Shown here piece after piece: positions 270 to 24,271 of a stretch of DNA of 32,000 bases. The stretch covers positions 299,459 through 331,458 of the forward strand of contig NZ_CP051185.1 of the NCBI RefSeq assembly GCF_012516315.1, given 5' to 3'. The notes under the pieces are model-generated. The model searched no databases. It saw only the letters and a list, made by a program, of their open reading frames with translations, and had not been told where the DNA came from. Both the position numbers and the translations under genes were made by a program. The DNA comes from Limnospira fusiformis SAG 85.79. GTDB taxonomy: Bacteria; Cyanobacteriota; Cyanobacteriia; Cyanobacteriales; Microcoleaceae. Positions within the stretch are counted from its first letter, which is position 1, and each line of letters opens with the position of its first letter.

Positions 270-568
270 AGTCAGGAGCAGTAAAATGTCGATTACCGTT
301 AGCTGTTGATCGTCGTAGTCGCAATAGCGATAAACCAGACTGGTTTAATTTAGACATTTGGGATAAGACGGCTGAAGTTGCTGCCAACTATGTCCGTAAG
401 GGCAGTTTGATTGGAGTCAAGGGAAGATTAAGGATTGAGACATGGACTGACCGCAATACGGGTGTACCACGTTCGACTCCGGTGATTGTGGTTGATCAAC
501 TTGAACTACTAGGATCTCGTCAGGATAATCAGGCATCTGGTGTTCCTGAGAATTATGATGAGTTCTAG
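270..568 (+). CDS. ssb: Single-stranded DNA-binding protein, 3' exon only (N-terminal ~35 aa missing from the window)
   Basis: The frame-2 translation is (E)SGAVKCRLPLAVDRRSRNSDKPDWFNLDIWDKTAEVAANYVRKGSLIGVKGRLRIETWTDRNTGVPRSTPVIVVDQLELLGSRQDNQASGVPENYDEF*. This is the typical SSB OB-fold core plus an acidic C-terminal tip. The frame is closed by TAG at 269-271, exactly at the intron end. It was not in the ORF track because it has no start codon. Confidence 0.8.
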
Positions 569-3149: not shown

Positions 3150-3260
3150 TGAGCTGAAACATCCCGATCCCAACAACCACCCTAATTCACAAAGGCGAAT
3201 ATACAAGGCAATTCGTCAGTTGTCCTAGTTACCTGGGATTTGCAGAAATGTTGTGGCATA

Positions 3261-7281: not shown

Positions 7282-8244
7282 ATGGACCTACTGCGATCGC
7301 TACCTATCGGTTTATACTTAGAACAACCGATTACTTGGCTTCATCGCCTTGATTCCCGGATTAAGCTAGTCTGGTTGATGAGCTTTCTCATTGCACCGAT
7401 CCTCTCTAATGCCCTTTGGCGGTTGGGGTTGGTGGTGCTATTGATGGTGATTACCCTAGTGGCAGCAATTCCGTTCCGGGTGTGGAAGCGACAAATGGGC
7501 TGGCTATTAACTTTCTGTAGCTTATTGTTGATAGTAAGTGCTATCCTACCTGATGGGTTGAGTGTTAGCCATCAACCTCGCCTCCCCAGAGATGAGATAG
7601 CCTTGGAAATGCAAAGTCTTGGGAGAGTGGGAGGACTGGGAGAAAATGCCACAACGGCCGCTGATTCGGTGACTGAGACTGAGGGTTTACCTCAACCAAC
7701 AGCCTATAGTTATATTCTGCTGGCAGCGGGTCCGTTAACTATTACCCGCTATTCCCTGGATCTGGGTGTTCGGATTAGTACCTTGCTGTTTACCCTGGTT
7801 TACAGCACTAATCTATATCTACTGACTACGGCTTCTGAGGAAATTGCTGTGGGGATCGAAAGCCTGATGAAACCATTGCGACGGCTGAAAATTCCGGTAA
7901 CAGAAATAGCCCTCACCCTCACTCTGTCCCTGCGTTTCTTTCCCCTGGTACTTGAGGAAATTCAGAACCTATATAGATCTGTGCGTACTAGGGCGATCGA
8001 CTGGAAAAAACTGGGCTGGCGAAGGGCGACTCAAATTTGGCTTTTGGTGGCAGAACGACTCCTAGAAAATTTATTATTGAGAGCAGAACAAATTGCTAAT
8101 GCCATGAAAGTCCGAGGCTTTACCAGTCCTAACCAACATCGAGTTGAGTGGCATCAACTTCAAATTAATTGGTGGGATTGGGTCGCCCTATTAGCCTTAA
8201 CTATATTTTGGGGTATGCGTTTGGTTTGGGGCTGGGAATCTTAA
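7282..8244 (+). CDS. ecfT: Energy-coupling factor transporter transmembrane subunit (EcfT/CbiQ family)
   Basis: Multi-TM protein with a coupling-helix Arg-Gly motif (ANAMKVRGF). A hydrophilic insert lies mid-protein. Confidence 0.65.
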   Translation: MDLLRSLPIGLYLEQPITWLHRLDSRIKLVWLMSFLIAPILSNALWRLGLVVLLMVITLVAAIPFRVWKRQMGWLLTFCSLLLIVSAILPDGLSVSHQPRLPRDEIALEMQSLGRVGGLGENATTAADSVTETEGLPQPTAYSYILLAAGPLTITRYSLDLGVRISTLLFTLVYSTNLYLLTTASEEIAVGIESLMKPLRRLKIPVTEIALTLTLSLRFFPLVLEEIQNLYRSVRTRAIDWKKLGWRRATQIWLLVAERLLENLLLRAEQIANAMKVRGFTSPNQHRVEWHQLQINWWDWVALLALTIFWGMRLVWGWES

Positions 8245-9412: not shown

Positions 9413-10751
9413 GAGCCAGAATTTAATCCAAGATTTGCTTTACATCTTAGGACAATAAGGTACAATACCCAAAAAGATTCGCAACTCAATAATGAATATA
9501 CGGTGAAACCCCAGACCATGCCAAATTTCCCTGACGACATACTCATCAAGTCGGATTCATGGTAAAATAAAATCATGGCTTACAAAGCTTTCCGAACCAA
9601 ACTAAAACTCAATGACCGTCATCGCACCTTGATGGCCAAACACGCGGGTTATGCTCGGTTCGTGTTTAATTGGGGATTACACTTATGGAGGTCAGCTTAT
9701 GAAGAGGGACTCAAGCCTAATATCAACTCCATTAAAAAGGTTTTTACTCATTATGTGAAACCTCAATATCCTTGGATATCTGAATTGTCTTCTAAAGTTG
9801 ATCAATATGCCTTCATTAATCTAGGGGATGCCTTTAAGCGCTTCTTCAAGGGAATAAGCAGTTATCCTAAATTTAAGAAGAAAGGCTACCATGATAGCTT
9901 TACCCTTGACAATTCGGGAAAGCCATTCAAGTTGTCAGGAACTCGCCATAAGCTGCCTTTTGTGGGCTGGGTTTCTACGTTTGAGGCTCTACCCGAAAGT
10001 GGGGTTAAGAAAGTCACTATAACGCGCCAAGCAGGTGACTGGTATATTAGCTTTTTCGTAGAAATCACGCCAGAAATTACACCGAAATATCGAGAGAGAA
10101 TCGGGGTAGACCTAGGAATTAACAATTGGGCGACTTGCTCCGATGGGACCCAATTCTCTAATCCCAAGGCTTATAAAGCAGCCACCCAAAAACTAGCTCG
10201 ATTACAACGTCATTTAAGTCGCAAAGTCAAAGGCTCAAAAAATCGGGCCAAATGTCTCTTAAAAGTTCAAAAGCTACATCAAAGAGTAGCTAATATTCGC
10301 CGTGACACGATTCATAAAATAACTACTTTTTTGGCTAAAAACCACAGCCAAGTAGTCATTGAAGATTTGAATGTGTCTGGAATGCTGAAAAATCATGGTT
10401 GGGCGGGTTCTATCGCTGATGCTTCATTTTATGAGTTCCGTCGGCAACTAGGTGACAAGGCAGAACGTTATGGTTCAAAGTTGATTATTGCCGATAGATT
10501 TTATCCATCCAGTCAACTGTGTTCTAATTGCGGTTATCGTCAAAAAATGCCCCTAGTCCGTCGGACTTTTGAATGTCCAAACTGTGGCCTGAAGATTGAT
10601 AGAGATTTGAACGCCAGTATAAATTTAGAAAAATCGCCTGGTTCAGACGATTACACTTGTGGACGGGGTGCTGCCGACAGTCCCGGACGAAGCCAGAAAT
10701 AAACGTCAATATCCGGCTATGTCCGGTTTTGTTTAAGTTTTATAGAGCAGT
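9413..10751 (+). mobile_element. IS200/IS605-family element, tnpB-only (no tnpA), copy 1
   Basis: Boundaries are set by where identity with the inverted copy 2 (14413-16624) begins and ends. The left end starts at GAGCCAGAATTT and the right end stops at ...TATAGAGCAGT. Boundaries are good to about 3 nt. Confidence 0.85.
9575..10702 (+). CDS. tnpB: RNA-guided endonuclease TnpB (IS1341/OrfB type)
   Basis: 375 aa. The RuvC-like triad contexts are intact: GVDLGINN, VVIEDLNV and IDRDLNASINL. A CxxC...CxxC zinc finger is present (CSNCG...CPNCG). Confidence 0.9.
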   Translation: MAYKAFRTKLKLNDRHRTLMAKHAGYARFVFNWGLHLWRSAYEEGLKPNINSIKKVFTHYVKPQYPWISELSSKVDQYAFINLGDAFKRFFKGISSYPKFKKKGYHDSFTLDNSGKPFKLSGTRHKLPFVGWVSTFEALPESGVKKVTITRQAGDWYISFFVEITPEITPKYRERIGVDLGINNWATCSDGTQFSNPKAYKAATQKLARLQRHLSRKVKGSKNRAKCLLKVQKLHQRVANIRRDTIHKITTFLAKNHSQVVIEDLNVSGMLKNHGWAGSIADASFYEFRRQLGDKAERYGSKLIIADRFYPSSQLCSNCGYRQKMPLVRRTFECPNCGLKIDRDLNASINLEKSPGSDDYTCGRGAADSPGRSQK

Positions 10752-11086
10752 CCACCTGATGAACTATCAATAGGGGGGATGAGGAACTTTCGGGTTAAAC
10801 TTTAATCATCTGCCTTTGTGTGAGGGGAGGAAATGTCTAAAAAAATGATGACAATCAGCCCCCACCAGGTCAGCTAGAGCGGTATCTTTAGAGCAGTTAC
10901 TCAACATATGAGATCTTTAAGGGTTGTTTCCTCAATTGGGGATCTCGTGTAAATTTAGTTGACCCTGTGCTTTAGGGTACAAGGCCTGTCTATCCGGGGA
11001 CTGGTTACAGTCTGGGTAATGCAGGCAGTAAATATCAAAATGTCAATGGTGACGTTTTGTGGCAGTTTTATGGAGCAGAGTGAGCC

Positions 11087-13355: not shown

Positions 13356-14405
13356 TCAAAACCTATCGAAGGATGACTGAGCCGCCGCCTGTGGGTCAGG
13401 AGCAAAAGCCAACCAGAGGGGAAACTGGAGCAACGAGAGGCTAATTTTGTCCTCTGTATCATCAATAATAATAAACGGAAGCCGACCATCATTAACCAAC
13501 CTGTCCGCTTTTTGAGCCAATAACTCTGGGTCTTCAAATAATCCCAACCCTCGCTCAGGTCCAAAATCACGGCGGTCAATTCCTAAGCAGTCTTGAAGTC
13601 CCCGCCGCCACTCTCCCAGGCGTTCTGGACTATTCGCCAAAACCAAAGTCCCCAAACGTCTGTCATAGAGACTTCTGAGAATAGATATAGTCGCCGAAGC
13701 CACCAGAATATTTTGCAGACGGCTTCCCATAGTCCGCAACGCACCGCGTCCACCTTGGTTAAAGAACCAATTAGAAACCTGTTTAGCGTGGATAGGCTCA
13801 AAAGTGCGGCGGAACTGCCAAGGGGGGCCATAATAGTCAGGATTAGTGCGGTATTGGTCAATAATCCGACGAATTTGTTTGGTTTGTTCAGCAAAAGCCG
13901 ACTTCGTAAATTGAGTATTAGGGTCAGGTTCAGCCACGGACTCCGCCGACTGACCTGCGGGAGTGGAACTAGCAGCAGGGGGAGTGATGGGTTCTTCTGG
14001 GATTAACTCAAGCTGTTCTGCGGTAGCCGCCAGGTCTTGAAGACTACCAACCAAATAATCTTTAAAACCTTGGACTCGGATAGCCAAATCCTGAGAAACC
14101 CCTGCAAAAGTAGTTCGCATTTCTTGCTCAATGCGTTCTCGGCGACGTTCGAGTTTTTCTACTTCCACCTGTAGAGTCTGTCGCCTCGCCTCCAACTGGC
14201 TGAGGGCTTCAGAAACCAGGTTTCCCATAGATTGAGTGAGGGCGGTTTGTTCCTGCTGTAATTTTGCCTTAGTTATCTGAAGTTGGGCAATTTCCTGCCT
14301 CAAATCTTCAGCCTGACGCTTGAGGTAATCTATAGGCTCGTCGGGGGACTGAGAGCCTGTGGTTAAATTAGGTTCAAGTGGTGATGATTCAGGTTGAGAA
14401 TTCAA
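13356..14405 (-). CDS. Conserved coiled-coil protein of unknown function (possibly DUF3086-like; recalled, unverified)
   Basis: The ORF runs to an ATG at 14507, but codons 1-31 are encoded by the right end of IS copy 2. I therefore place the start at the TTG at 14405, 7 nt outside the IS. A long heptad-rich region (LRQEIAQLQITKAKLQQEQ...VEKLERRRERIEQE) precedes a globular C-terminus. Confidence 0.5.
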   Translation of the reverse strand: MNSQPESSPLEPNLTTGSQSPDEPIDYLKRQAEDLRQEIAQLQITKAKLQQEQTALTQSMGNLVSEALSQLEARRQTLQVEVEKLERRRERIEQEMRTTFAGVSQDLAIRVQGFKDYLVGSLQDLAATAEQLELIPEEPITPPAASSTPAGQSAESVAEPDPNTQFTKSAFAEQTKQIRRIIDQYRTNPDYYGPPWQFRRTFEPIHAKQVSNWFFNQGGRGALRTMGSRLQNILVASATISILRSLYDRRLGTLVLANSPERLGEWRRGLQDCLGIDRRDFGPERGLGLFEDPELLAQKADRLVNDGRLPFIIIDDTEDKISLSLLQFPLWLAFAPDPQAAAQSSFDRF

Positions 14406-14461
14406 TGGTTGTACTGCTCTATAAAACTTAAACAAAACCGGACATAGCCGGATATTGATGT

Positions 14462-15585
14462 TTATTTCTTGCTTCGTCCGGGACTGTCGGCAGCACCCCG
14501 TCCACAAGTGTAATCGTCGGAACCAGGCGATTTTTCTAAATTTATACTGGCGTTCAAATCTCTATCAATCTTCAAGCCACAGTTTGGACATTCAAAAGTC
14601 CGACGGACTAGGGGCATTTTTTGACGATAACCGCAATTAGAACACAGTTGACTGGATGGATAAAATCTATCGGCAATAATCAACTTTGAACCATAACGTT
14701 CTGCCTTGTAACCTAGTTGACGACGGAACTCATAAAATGAAGCATCAGCGATCGAACCCGCCAAACCATGATTTTTCAGCATACCTGACACATTCAAATC
14801 TTCAATGACTACTTGGCTGTGGTTTTTAGCCAAAAAAGTAGTTATTTTATGAATCGTGTCCCGCCGAATGTTTGCTACTCTTTGATGTAGCTTTTGAACT
14901 TTTAAGAGACATTTGGCCCAATTTTTCGAGCCTTTGACTTTGCGACTTAAATGACGTTGTAATTGAGCTAGTTTTTGGGTGGCTGCTTTATAAGCCTTGG
15001 GACTAGAGAATTGGGTCCCATCGGAGCAAGTCGCCAAATTGTTAATTCCTAGGTCAACCCCGATTCTCTCTCGATATTTCGGTGTAATTTCTGGCGTGAT
15101 TTCTACGAAAAAGCTCATATACCAGTCACCTGCTTGGCGCGTTATAGTGACTTTCTTAACCCAACTTTCGGGTAGAGCCTCAAATGTAGAAACCCAGCCC
15201 ACAAAAGGCAGCTTATGGCGAGTTCCTGACAGATTGAATGGCCTTCCGGAATTGTCAAGCGTAAAACTATCATGGTGGCCTTTATTCTTAAATTTAGGAT
15301 AACTGCTTATTCCTTTGAAGAATCGCTTAAAGGCATCCCCTAGATTAATGAAGGCATATTGATCAACTTTAGAAGACAATTCGGACATCCAAGGATATTG
15401 AGGTTTCACATAATGAGTAAAAACCTTTTTAATAGAGTTGATATTAGGCTTGAGTCCCTCTTCATAAGCTGACCTCCATAAGTGTAATCCCCAATTAAAC
15501 ACGAACCGAGCATAACCCGCGTGTTTGGCCATCAAGGTGCGATGACGGTCATTGAGTTTTAGTTTGGTTCGGAAAGCTTTGTAAG
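14462..15585 (-). CDS. tnpB: TnpB, copy 2, separated from its ATG (16458-16460) by the nested intron
   Basis: I count 14 aa substitutions relative to copy 1 over 357 shared residues, and the RuvC and zinc-finger motifs are intact. In-frame sequence continues upstream of the track ORF (15535) to 15585 (PYKAFRTKLKLNDRHRTL). There it meets a TAA contributed by the intron tail. Confidence 0.75.
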
Positions 15586-16456
15586 GTTATGGTCGAAAGG
15601 GAAGTCACCTTCCCCAACTCCACTTCCAAACCGTACTTGAGACTTTCACCTCATACGGCTCCTAATGTAGATACCCTTTTTGTCACTAGGAACAGGGTTA
15701 CGAACCCCCGCTTTATGATTCCAACTTTGGGAGCTTGGCATACAACTCGTAGTCTTTAAACTCGCTCTCGTCATATTACTCCTACTTGTCGCAGTCTCCA
15801 TATCTACACCGTGACTAGTGGGCATATCCTAATCATTACAATTAGGCATTGGCTTTCAGTCACATCCTTTCCCCTCAATGGTATACGCTTACACTTTTCG
15901 CTACTCCTTGTGAGTAATATTGCTCACTTTTTTGATAAGGAGAACCAATGAGGAGTTTAAACGTTCCGTTTATATGGGCATTCCATCTTTAGACTTGTCC
16001 TCTCCACCGGGGTACTTAAAAAGGTCTGTGTAGGTGTTTTATGCAAAACCCTACTTTTCCCCTTGCTCTTTTGAGCGCAGCGTGGCAACCTATTACGCTG
16101 CTAAATCATTACGATGGTTCAAGCCAGACATTCGGTTTCCCTAGTCATGGATGGTTGGCAGTGGTCGCATTTGGTAGTAGGTTCTACCTCACGCCTTCCG
16201 TTCCCCGCTTCAATCCCAGAATCGTGTATCCTGAAATTGGGGGTGGCTATCGCCTTTACTCTCTACTCCCTGATTTCTCAGTTTGTTTATGACCTTGAGT
16301 CCCCTGCCTTGCTCAGATTTCTCCAAGCGTCGGGACATATAAACAGTTATGGGATGGTCAGGATACGAGTCCCTTATATTCCACCAAGGGGTGGAAGTCC
16401 CACTAGGAGGCTATTTCGGGCATTGCAGCCTTATTTGACTCCTAAACGTCTCGCAC
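15586..16456 (-). mobile_element. Complete ORF-less group II intron (871 nt)
   Basis: On the minus strand it starts GUGCGAGACG (16456 downward). Domain V lies at 15628-15661: GAGCCGUAUGAGGU-GAAA-GUCUCA[AG]UACGGUUU. A DVI-like hairpin follows and the intron ends ...CGACCAUAAC at 15586. The block is absent from the otherwise collinear copy 1. It is too short to hold a reverse-transcriptase ORF. Confidence 0.85.
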
Positions 16457-16841
16457 CATGGTTTGATTTTACCATGAAGAATCCGACTTGATGAGTATGT
16501 CGTCAAGGAAATTTGGCATGGTCTGGGGTTTGACCGTATACTCATTATTGAGTTGCGAATCTTTGGGGTTATTGTACCTTATTGTCCTAAGATGTAAAGC
16601 AAATCTTGGATTAAATTCTGGCTCTGGGTTCAAACTAGGGTAAGGTAGGGTGCGTCAAACCTACTCAATATCGATCATAATTATGCGATCGCACCATACC
16701 CCTGCTATTTCAATCCCAATCGAATAATTTTCGCCAAAGAGTGCGATCGCCTCCCGTAGCCTCCGGTCGGGTGCGTCATAACCCGGCTATATAAATGCCT
16801 GGGGATAATTCCCTGCTGACGCACCATAGAGACTATATTTG

Positions 16842-21558: not shown

Positions 21559-24140
21559 GTTTCCCTCCCCTCATGGGGAATTTGTAGGGTTGCACACGGC
21601 TGCAGTCATTCATCACTAATGTCGGGGCTATTAGTCGGTTTCCGTCCCCTGACGGGGAATTGGTAGGGTTGGACGCTGTAAATATTACGAAGTCAAAGCA
21701 AACGCCACTCTCTGGTCGTTTCCGTCCCCTGACGGGGAATTGGTAGGGTTGGACACCCCCGAAACCTGCAGTAGTTCTACGGCAAAGAAATGCGCGTTTC
21801 CGTCCCCTGACGGGGAATTGGTAGGGTTGGACCGAGCGAGAAAAGGTTAATTTCTTGGCTAGAAAATTTAGCCCGGTTTCCGTCCCCTGACGGGGAATTG
21901 GTAGGGTTGGACCACATATGGTGGGAAAACCAGCGTTCGCGATGGGATTCTTTAAGGTTTCCGTCCCCTGACGGGGAATTGGTAGGGTTGGACCTCGAAG
22001 AGCGTTTATCATTTCCATTAGGGGGTATTTTCCCCATTCTTCTGTTTCCGTCCCCTGACGGGGAATTGGTAGGGTTGGACGAGTGTGAAGACTGGGATTT
22101 AGTCTCCCAGATCGAAGCCTACAAGGCGGAGAAGTTTCCGTCCCCTGACGGGGGAATTGGTAGGGTTGGACAGACACACAGAAGGCAAAACAAATGAAAA
22201 CACCGAACTATGAAGCAGTTTCCGTCCCCTGACGGGGGAATTGGTAGGGTTGGACACACCTATTGAAGATGTGTTAACTGCTTTAAATGAGTTTGTCTCT
22301 GGTTTCCGTCCCCTGACGGGGGAATTGGTAGGGTTGGACGTCAGGCAGTGGCTTGGGTGGGTTTTTCTGAAGTTGTATCAAGTTTCCGTCCCCTGACGGG
22401 GGAATTGGTAGGGTTGGACTTTCGTGCCAAACCATAGAGAAATCTAGTCTACTTGGATAGAGAGTTTCCGTCCCCTGACGGGGGAATTGGTAGGGTTGGA
22501 CGAGAATATCATGGTGACTGCCCGTGTCCAAGCACTGCGGAACAAAGTTGTTTCCGTCCCCTGACGGGGGAATTGGTAGGGTTGGACACGACAAAGGCTA
22601 ACAGTTTGAGATTAACCATCAGCACGGAAAGTTTCCGTCCCCTGACGGGGGAATTGGTAGGGTTGGACGAGTGCGAACCAATTGAACCAATTTCGGAACC
22701 GGAAATCAAGCCGGAGTTTCCGTCCCCTGACGGGGGAATTGGTAGGGTTGGACCTGATCCAGGCATGGGTGCTTGGTCGACAACAGGCAAAGAATAAACA
22801 GTTTCCGTCCCCTGACGGGGGAATTGGTAGGGTTGGACAGAAATGGGGAAGTTGCAGGAGTAAGAGGGCTGAGGCCTTAATGTTTCCGTCCCCTGACGGG
22901 GGAATTGGTAGGGTTGGACTTCGGAGCGTTCATGCGAGTGAACATCCCTGAAACAGGGCTAGTTTCCGTCCCCTGACGGGGGAATTGGTAGGGTTGGACC
23001 CATTGTCGGAAGTTTCATTAAACAGGAGACTGAAGAAATAAAATCCGTTTCCGTCCCCTGACGGGGGAATTGGTAGGGTTGGACGCGGTTTTAAGTAGTG
23101 GGGAAAAATTCACCCCCCACAACTACCCAATGTTTCCGTCCCCTGACGGGGGAATTGGTAGGGTTGGACCACAGATGCTAGATAAGGCCGATGAAAAGGG
23201 TCGAATCGTGTTTCCGTCCCCTGACGGGGGAATTGGTAGGGTTGGACTGGAGGTCTATCGGAGTACTAACTACTCCGGGTACGGCTTCAAGTTTCCGTCC
23301 CCTGACGGGGGAATTGGTAGGGTTGGACAGTTATAAACCATACCATGAAGATGAATATTTGGGAATATAGAGTGTTTCCGTCCCCTGACGGGGGAATTGG
23401 TAGGGTTGGACCTGAATTTGATGAGTTTATCACACCCACACCCCAACTAGGTGCGGTAAGTTTCCGTCCCCTGACGGGGGAATTGGTAGGGTTGGACTCA
23501 AAGAGAGGATCCGTAATGGACTGCGTCCTGAAGGGTGACTTGGTTTCCGTCCCCTGACGGGGGAATTGGTAGGGTTGGACATCGCGTATGCGATCTTCGT
23601 ATTTGGGGTGCTTCCTCGGCTGTTTCCGTCCCCTGACGGGGGAATTGGTAGGGTTGGACTAGCTGATTCAACCGATATCACTCTACGAGTTTCATTGATT
23701 TCAGAAGTTTCCGTCCCCTGACGGGGGAATTGGTAGGGTTGGACTCATTACAGAAAAACATGAACAGCGTGGACATTTCTCTAGTTTCCGTCCCCTGACG
23801 GGGGAATTGGTAGGGTTGGACCATCGAGGCACCGAAATTTTTTACCCTGTTTATTTTCTTAGTGGTTTCCGTCCCCTGACGGGGGAATTGGTAGGGTTGG
23901 ACGGGTAGTGAGTCAGTATTCTATTGCAAAAGGAGAAGACTATGGTTTCCGTCCCCTGACGGGGGAATTGGTAGGGTTGGACACTCGGGTAAAGGTTCAG
24001 GTCAAAATCCACGGCGAGTGGGTAGTTTCCGTCCCCTGACGGGGGAATTGGTAGGGTTGGACTTAGAACTTTAATTTTTTTAATAAAGGAATGTCTCCCT
24101 TGGTTTCCGTCCCCTGACGGGGGAATTGGTAGGGTTGGAC
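21559..24140 (-). CRISPR. CRISPR array of 32 repeats and 31 spacers, with no cas genes in the window
   Basis: On the plus strand the repeat is GTTTCCGTCCCCTGACGGGGGAATTGGTAGGGTTGGAC (38 nt, repeats 8-32). Repeats 2-7 are a 37-nt variant with one fewer G. A degenerate terminal copy with 5 mismatches lies at 21559-21595. Read on the minus strand the repeat is GTCCAACCCTACCAATTCCCCCGTCAGGGGACGGAAAC, giving a CCCC-GUCA-GGGG hairpin followed by an 8-nt ACGGAAAC tag. Spacers are unique and 39-53 nt long. Confidence 0.97.
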
Positions 24141-24271
24141 CCTATACCTTTGGAAACCTTACGGTATGCGGTTTTCAAGGTGCGATCGCGCGAGAGCACG
24201 TAGAAGGTGCTTAACAAAACTTTACAGCCCTTTTTTCGGGGAGCAAATTCGTTTGTTTTCGCTGGATTTAT

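Follow-up and report, generated by a model that had tools for sequence, protein, structure and literature searches.

A tnpB gene of the cyanobacterium Limnospira fusiformis SAG 85.79 is interrupted directly after its ATG by an 871-nt group II intron that carries no open reading frame. Comparison with sister copies of the host element suggests that this IIB-type intron is a recombinant of two related introns, referred to as X and W, which insert 1 nt apart. In the exchange a 1-nt exon would have been lost, and the affected tnpB copy has most likely been inactivated recently. To this reading as a whole we assign a probability of about 80%.

Host element and insertion site

The analysed window, a stretch of 32,000 nt from the chromosome of L. 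fusiformis SAG 85.79, contains two copies of an insertion sequence (IS) as inverted repeats with 96% identity (9579–10770 versus 14394–15585 and 9413–9558 versus 16479–16624). Copy 1, on the plus strand at 9413–10751, is an element of about 1.34 kb with an empty site; its similarity to copy 2 extends to 10770. The sole open reading frame of the element is tnpB, without tnpA, and copy 1 holds an intact gene of 375 aa (9575–10702, plus strand) whose protein starts with MAYKAFRT... and matches HTH_OrfB_IS605 (PF12323), OrfB_IS605 (PF01385) and Cas12f1-like_TNB (PF07282) in Pfam. Since the HTH match begins at residue 1, the ATG at 9575 is regarded as the true start of the gene.

Copy 2 (14413–16624, minus strand) was recognized by the inverted repeat, the comparison of right ends and the Pfam matches as an intron-interrupted, tnpB-only element of the IS200/IS605 family. 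On its right side the similarity to copy 1 continues to 14394, while the end that is conserved across loci stops with ...TTTTATAGAGCAGT at about 14413. The left end of the IS, aligned to copy 1 and to the sister copies, forms a 5' exon of 168 nt (16457–16624, minus strand), the final bases of which are the tnpB ATG at 16459–16457. The 3' exon (14462–15585, minus strand) is the tnpB body, which is out of frame with this ATG once the exons are ligated but contains an internal ATG at 15532 that opens an intact frame of 356 aa. Between the left ends of the two copies a 3-nt indel (TTC) is found 20 nt upstream of the insertion point.

At the equivalent position copy 1 reads ...AAAATCATGG|CTTACAAAGC, i.e. 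CATGG|CTTAC, and copy 2 reads CCATG|GTGCGA...ATAAC|CTTAC. The first-pass annotation had placed an insertion at the tnpB initiation codon, and this location holds, as does the statement that copy 1 is empty at the equivalent place; in the junction itself, however, one G had been counted twice. The net insertion relative to copy 1 amounts to 870 nt, and the exons around the 871-nt intron lack one base in comparison to the copy 1 sequence CATGGCTTAC. Empty copies of the IS, represented by copy 1 in the window and by a relative in Oscillatoria, rule out that the 871 nt are an integral part of the element, and the survey of further IS copies revealed occupied as well as empty sites.

The IS is multicopy, with conserved ends at unrelated loci: besides the two copies in the window it was met in three other chromosomal contexts of Limnospira. 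A BLAST search of the IS against a plasmid collection returned distant tnpB fragments only, and the 25 nt that follow the insertion site had 0 matches in a scan of metagenomes. At 97% identity the TnpB homologues form a cluster of 441 members from Limnospira and Arthrospira, the annotated members of which are mostly 346 or 356 aa long and thus N-terminally truncated. Exact-protein look-ups with both TnpB forms of the window returned no record. The flanking genes are cyanobacterial housekeeping genes (yggS-like, sepF, proC, plsY, DUF3086, dxs). The inverted IS repeats at 9413–10770 and 14394–16624 bracket the genes sepF-proC-plsY-DUF3086 (about 3.6 kb), a layout conserved in the other Limnospira genomes examined; homologous recombination between both repeats could invert this segment.

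Two further repeat-associated features of the window are mentioned for completeness. At 1–269 on the plus strand the 3' end of a second group II intron is located, with domains V and VI at 192–269 (Rfam RF00029, 65.4 bits) and a body that runs past the start of the window; beyond these two domains it shows only a remote relationship to the tnpB intron, and its last 190 nt before domain V are without coding sequence. A CRISPR-like array occupies 22112–24156; its repeat of 38 nt (GTTTCCGTCCCCTGACGGGGGAATTGGTAGGGTTGGAC) occurs about 25 times, separated by spacers of about 45 nt. Since the window contains no cas genes in its vicinity and GUN4 and genes of pilM/N/Q type follow downstream, the array seems to be orphaned or to lie far from its cas operon.

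Identity and fold of the intron

The intron (15586–16456, minus strand) lies in sense orientation to tnpB. It starts with GUGCGAGACG at 16456 and ends with CGACCAUAAC at 15586, and both termini are those conserved in group II introns, with GUGCG at 16456–16452 (consensus GUGYG) and ...AUAAC at 15586 (consensus AY). The Rfam model RF00029, which describes domains V and VI, matches 15663–15586 on the minus strand over its full length (model positions 1–77) with 60.6 bits and E=1e-9 at a gathering score of 40, and this match terminates exactly at the 3' end of the intron. When contigs of one genome per species were scanned with the domain V of the window intron, Arthrospira platensis PCC 7345 yielded about 40 loci. 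From this strain BLAST identified ten full-length relatives without open reading frame and with 74–86% identity, all ten of which start with GTGCGA; eight of the ten end with CGACCATAAC, the remaining two with the variants CGATCATAAC and CGACCCCTAC. By comparison with these ten relatives, the limits at 16456 and 15586 are fixed. A BLAST search of the intron against the plasmid collection yielded fragments of domain V size only.

On the sense strand of the intron no stop-free stretch exceeds 66 codons, and no coding sequence resembling a reverse transcriptase (RT) or an intron-encoded protein occurs in the whole window. In a relative with 75% identity (L005) the homology is lost from intron nt 704 to nt 791, where an insert of about 1.7 kb encodes an RT/maturase. 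The best homologue of solved structure for this reading frame (L005:2495–3964) is the T.el4h maturase/RT of Thermosynechococcus (6ME0_C, E=6.9e-74). Because the RT of the ORF-containing relative is closest to T.el4h, which belongs to the chloroplast-like (CL)/IIB class, the family is placed among the cyanobacterial CL/IIB introns. For the ORF-less window intron the maturase/RT would presumably be supplied in trans.

A consensus structure of 200 pairs was calculated with RNAalifold from 12 family members. In this consensus 97.2% of the cells are paired, in comparison to 38–45% when the partners are slid, and compensatory changes on both sides were observed for 42 pairs, compared to 24.3±2.7 in shuffled alignments (0 of 500 reach 42) and 3–8 after sliding. 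The covariation thus supports a complete group II fold of six domains. From the consensus and its pair counts, domain I extends over 15961–16449 (intron nt 8–496), domain II over 15871–15955 and domain III over 15811–15863, all on the minus strand. Domain IV (15664–15810, minus strand) is a stub without open reading frame at the place where ORF-containing relatives carry the RT/maturase gene. Domain V, the catalytic hairpin (15628–15661, minus strand), is defined by the RF00029 alignment and by four compensatory pairs. Domain VI and the 3' end follow at 15586–15627 on the minus strand, with domain VI at 15615–15598 in the RNAalifold layout, and the RF00029 alignment places a candidate bulged branch-point A at 15593, with a distance of 8 nt to the 3' splice site.

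The first-pass annotation had described the 871-nt block as an ORF-less group II intron with a canonical domain V at 15628–15661, and both descriptions are borne out by the RF00029 score, the six-domain fold and the short open stretches. Covariance models, which it had proposed as a check, recognize domains V and VI, but the Rfam families for domains I–IV gave no match to the window intron even at E≤5. We attribute this silence to the particular subclasses covered by those models, as covariation supports the domains themselves.

Exon recognition

Stretches complementary to the own 5' exon of each copy were mapped onto the family alignment. The scan located EBS2 (UGAUUU, 16103–16108, intron nt 349–354, minus strand) in an internal loop, from where it pairs with IBS2 (AAAUCA, 16464–16469, minus strand, exon positions −13 to −8). 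The EBS2 columns pair with the own exon of the respective copy, at about −14 to −8, in 8 of the 11 family members compared. EBS1 was assigned to a 15-nt loop, GUUUUGCAUAAAACA, at 16035–16049 (intron nt 408–422, minus strand), which is closed by GUAGG/CCUAC. Its core GCAU (16041–16044) is of W type and expects an exon that ends with AUGC|. The register, with loop position 6 opposite exon position −1, is common to X, W and two other members of the family (L066_4848 and L026). With its own 5' exon ...AACCAUG|, the EBS1 of the window intron shows no in-register pairing, and 3 bp are obtained only if the helix is slipped by 1 nt. Of the exon pairings that the first-pass annotation had suggested looking for in domain I, the one with EBS2 is therefore present and the in-register one with EBS1 is not. 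The mismatch is a defect of the window copy rather than evidence against its group II family, and it finds its explanation in the parental X and W copies described below.

To locate EBS3, 12 copies were scanned column by column for covariation with the +1 base of the 3' exon, and no column stood out convincingly. Intron nt 7 (G/A in GUGCGA[G/A]ACG) forms a standard pair with this +1 base in 10 of the 12 copies, the three copies with A each facing a T; shared ancestry of those three introns may simply account for this.

Sister loci with introns X, W and Y

The genomic places of members of the TnpB cluster were fetched and the intron junctions compared. In L. fusiformis PMC 851.14 (L081) intron X occurs alone, in the arrangement left end...AATCATG|X|CCTTAC; it comprises 883 nt and is 84% identical to the window intron. 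In A. platensis C1 (L076) intron W occurs alone, as left end...AATCATGC|W|CAATC, with 871 nt and 99% identity to the window intron. Both are found in tandem at a third locus (L082 2327–4947, CP162027.1), which reads left end...AAACCATG|X|C|W|CTTAC. Here the exon between X and W consists of a single nucleotide, the C at 3210, and a further intron Y of 866 nt is nested in W between nt 575 and 576, so that the first four bases of tnpB accommodate three group II introns.

X inserts at ATG|CCTTAC and W at ATGC|CTTAC, i.e. the two lineages use sites 1 nt apart, and each EBS1 fits its own site. In the X loop (...UCAUGAC...) the stretch CAUGA forms 5 bp with UCAUG|, and in the W loop (...UGCAUAA...) GCAU pairs with AUGC|; the loop register is identical and EBS2 is common to both (UGAUUU : AAAUC(A)). 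In-silico splicing restores a TnpB of 375 aa, starting with MPYK... or MPIK..., in all three sister copies (L076, L081 and L082), and the ligated sequence so predicted is found unchanged in the uninterrupted Oscillatoria relative, ...ATCATGCCTTACAAAGC. The fit of each EBS1, the restored reading frame and the matching empty site lead us to regard the start-codon region of tnpB as a genuine homing site for X and W. At the tandem locus an obligatory order of splicing is implied, since the IBS1 of W (AUGC) forms only once X has been removed.

Copy 1 of the window carries the site ATGG, and its IBS2 region is AAAUAA instead of AAAUCA. It matches both introns poorly, because the G at +4 removes the −1 pair of W and the +1 C, and the altered IBS2 weakens the pairing with EBS2; judged from these bases, copy 1 is plausibly a resistant allele. 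Across loci the W introns are 99.0–99.7% identical, whereas the bodies of their host IS differ by about 4%. With introns at about 99% and IS at about 96% identity, the introns either entered IS copies that had already diverged or were homogenized among them, and this pattern disfavours co-transposition of IS and intron as the main mode of spread.

Several other arrangements were encountered in the same survey. Two of the sister IS copies are surrounded by remnants of introns. In A. platensis C1 (L076 930–1381) the IS left end abuts nt 1–407 of another group II intron. Past the right end of the IS in L. fusiformis PMC 851.14 (L081 3625–5540) a fragmented RT/maturase-HNH gene (RVT_N, GIIM, HNH) with a domain V is located. 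ORF-less members of the family also occur nested or in tandem at many places in A. platensis PCC 7345 (L006, L017, L062, L067, L071); one of them is inserted in domain III of another copy (L067, ...AATGATTAGGA|).

Conservation in Limnospira

All six Limnospira genomes compared at the orthologous dxs-DUF3086 locus share the 5' junction of the window intron (CP146095.1, CP060212.1, FO818640.1, CP162027.1 and two with scaffold gaps), and both junctions are present in the four ungapped ones, in which the intron is 99.9–100% identical. The left end of the IS, i.e. the 5' exon, is 100% identical at this locus in the six genomes. A homopolymer or assembly error as the source of the missing base is excluded by the occurrence of the same junction in six independent genomes, which identifies it as a real inherited allele. 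Two apparent alleles with internal deletions (L086 and L090) proved to be scaffold gaps, i.e. runs of N. The orthologue of copy 1 is uninterrupted in the genomes checked (L085, L087–L091).

Short-read assemblies (L001–L004, L078–L080, L086, L090) break or leave N-gaps at the IS with its intron. Annotation pipelines call the interrupted tnpB genes "partial" or N-truncated proteins of 346 or 356 aa.

Reading frame of the window copy

Canonical ligation of the exons in the window joins CATG to CTTAC and results in ATG CTT ACA AAG CTT TCC GAA CCA AAC TAA, a peptide of 9 aa. The same 9 aa are obtained by in-silico splicing of the window copy and four orthologues, and with one C added back the frame extends to 375 aa; the spliced tnpB is out of frame because the 1-nt exon has been lost. 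The proposal of the first-pass annotation that TnpB expression depends on splicing consequently fails for the window copy, where canonical splicing gives the short peptide and EBS1 is out of register. For the sister copies in L076, L081 and L082 such a dependence would hold, judging from their predicted ligated exons.

The tnpB body, read from the internal ATG, is fully open (356 aa) in all five strains. The window gene is most likely a recently disabled tnpB whose body is still intact, although an open body would also fit continued function by some route. The differences among orthologues of copy 2 are mostly nonsynonymous (about 10 versus 6), without any sign of constraint.

Origin of the window intron

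The window intron combines the 5' junction of X (ATG|) with the 3' junction of W (|CTTAC), and its interior follows the same division. At intron nt 20, 26 and 29 the bases C, A and C are shared by the window intron and X, in place of G, G and A in both independent W copies; from nt 39 onward the window intron is of W type. The X-derived 5' segment is located at 16419–16456 on the minus strand, is defined by only these three diagnostic sites, and ends in a crossover between nt 29 and 39. When the crossover was simulated with X and W of the tandem locus, the best position was k=29–38 with 3 mismatches, compared to 6 for pure W. The pair 26–39 in the first hairpin of domain I is A-U in X and G-C in W and appears as an A.C mismatch in the window, which fits a crossover between those two positions. 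Further, the last 81 nt of the left end do not differ between the tandem locus (extra TTC, AAACCATG) and the window copy, and the tandem X-C-W structure exists in the same species.

In the body of copy 2 at about 15198–15250 (IS body nt 336–388), 10 of about 12 differences from the four orthologues are concentrated in one patch of 53 nt, in which the window matches other IS copies and L085/L087/L088/L089 share a different block (8037–8089). This patch looks like a gene-conversion tract from its distribution of differences, and shows that exchange of this kind takes place among these repeats.

Taken together, these observations are best explained by homologous recombination or gene conversion between X and W, arranged in tandem in one IS or located in different IS copies. 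The first 29–38 nt or so of X together with its 5' junction would have been fused to the rest of W with its 3' junction, and the exchange would have deleted the single C, i.e. the 1-nt exon, that separates the X and W sites. The same end state would be reached if a plain W had inserted at its normal site and the last C of the exon had been removed later by a 1-nt deletion, the X-like nt 20–29 being ancestral to W or an unrelated conversion patch. The X ancestry is supported by just 3 diagnostic sites, short conversion tracts do occur in these repeats, and the two W reference copies may share a derived 5' patch. Such a course is nevertheless very unlikely, as it demands two independent events, namely the deletion and a three-site patch within 10 nt of 871, where one X/W exchange suffices, and a tandem X-C-W parent with a left end identical over at least 81 nt is present in the same species.

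Two further explanations would leave the window gene functional. The EBS1–IBS1 helix contributes to the choice of the 5' splice site in group II introns, and if the first G of the intron is counted as exon position −1, C7, A8 and U9 of the EBS1 loop pair with A, U and G. Cleavage shifted to a site after this G (AUGG|UGCGAG) would give AUGG+CUUAC, in frame (MAYK...), and thereby a full-length TnpB with an mRNA reading exactly like that of the intact copy 1; the tnpB body kept open in five strains would agree with this. The shift would have to tolerate a G.G mismatch opposite loop G6, the loss of the conserved intron G1 and a displacement of all tertiary contacts of the 5' end by one base, and the roughly 10 nonsynonymous versus 6 other orthologue differences give no sign of constraint, so we consider it quite unlikely. 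Simple retrohoming of one intron, with precise splicing that restores tnpB and gates TnpB at the window copy, appears highly improbable: the ligated exons encode 9 aa, EBS1 is not in register with the exon, and the junction is identical in six genomes, which excludes a sequencing error. That the intron is structurally intact, sense-oriented and placed at the start codon, and that sister copies regain the 375-aa frame on in-silico splicing, would be expected under simple retrohoming as well. Recombination between X and W with loss of the 1-nt exon is therefore the reading that we prefer.

Relation to known systems

Group II introns are abundant in this group of cyanobacteria. For A. platensis NIES-39 at least 150 were reported, 79 of them without RT (PMC2853384), and a later survey lists 101 (PMC8919778). 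The window intron resembles the proliferated cyanobacterial CL/IIB introns (NIES-39; T.el, 6ME0) in its 5' GUGCG, its domains I–VI and the consensus of domains V and VI, and also in the occurrence of ORF-less copies beside RT-encoding relatives, the colonization of new sites by EBS divergence and the nesting of introns. In contrast to those examples, two sister lineages have here hit one IS 1 nt apart, with the window copy as their recombinant.

From Anabaena cylindrica and Nostoc, introns with RT-HNH that reside in IS605 elements were described by Kapitonov et al. (2016, PMC4810608). As in that case, a mobile group II intron resides in a cyanobacterial element of the IS200/IS605 family, and bacterial group II introns tend in general to inhabit other mobile DNA. 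Unlike the Anabaena and Nostoc introns with their own RT-HNH, the window intron is ORF-less; its position is precisely that of the tnpB start codon, and this site is occupied in several IS copies.

IStrons are chimeras of a group I intron and IS200/605/607 elements, i.e. TnpB transposons (PMC4227781; PMC10690162). Similar to these, a ribozyme of the self-splicing type is joined to a TnpB transposon, which raises the question of how splicing relates to the expression of TnpB and guide RNA. The window copy does not belong to the IStrons. Its ribozyme is of group II and is situated inside the IS, where 168 nt separate it from the left end and the 3' guide-RNA region is distant. Splicing would excise nothing but the intron, whereas the boundaries of an IStron allow the whole IS to be removed from a host transcript.

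In Trichodesmium, bacterial group II twintrons are spliced in sequence (PMC4649490). The nesting of Y in W at the tandem locus and the implied removal of X before W are comparable, whereas X and W themselves form a tandem with a 1-nt exon instead of a nest, and the window copy is a single intron. Neither elements nor hosts of this kind are hence new. Repeated homing to the tnpB start codon by a pair such as X and W, offset by 1 nt, a tandem with a 1-nt exon and its collapse into a frame-destroying recombinant were not found described in our incomplete search of the literature.

Conclusion

These findings indicate that a mobile ribozyme can repeatedly colonize the first codons of the gene of an RNA-guided-nuclease transposon. 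In several Limnospira IS copies TnpB would, as predicted from the exon junctions, be made only after the removal of one to three introns. It is conceivable, although rather unlikely, that the tnpB start codon is a maintained docking site for the pair of ORF-less introns. TnpB would then be gated by a splicing cascade in which Y and X precede W, driven by a maturase acting in trans, as a group II counterpart of the IStrons that tunes the balance of nuclease and guide RNA, with the collapse of the tandem as an off switch for single copies. The offset of 1 nt between X and W, each with its own EBS1, provides a clean natural example of how a few loop bases retarget an intron to a new homing site. 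The window copy represents a simple route of decay, in which recombination between sister introns deletes a micro-exon and silently kills the gene while the intron continues to look perfect. Nature has also provided a test here: a 5' splice site chosen by the EBS1 register and one chosen by the intron's own 5' end would lead to different reading frames.
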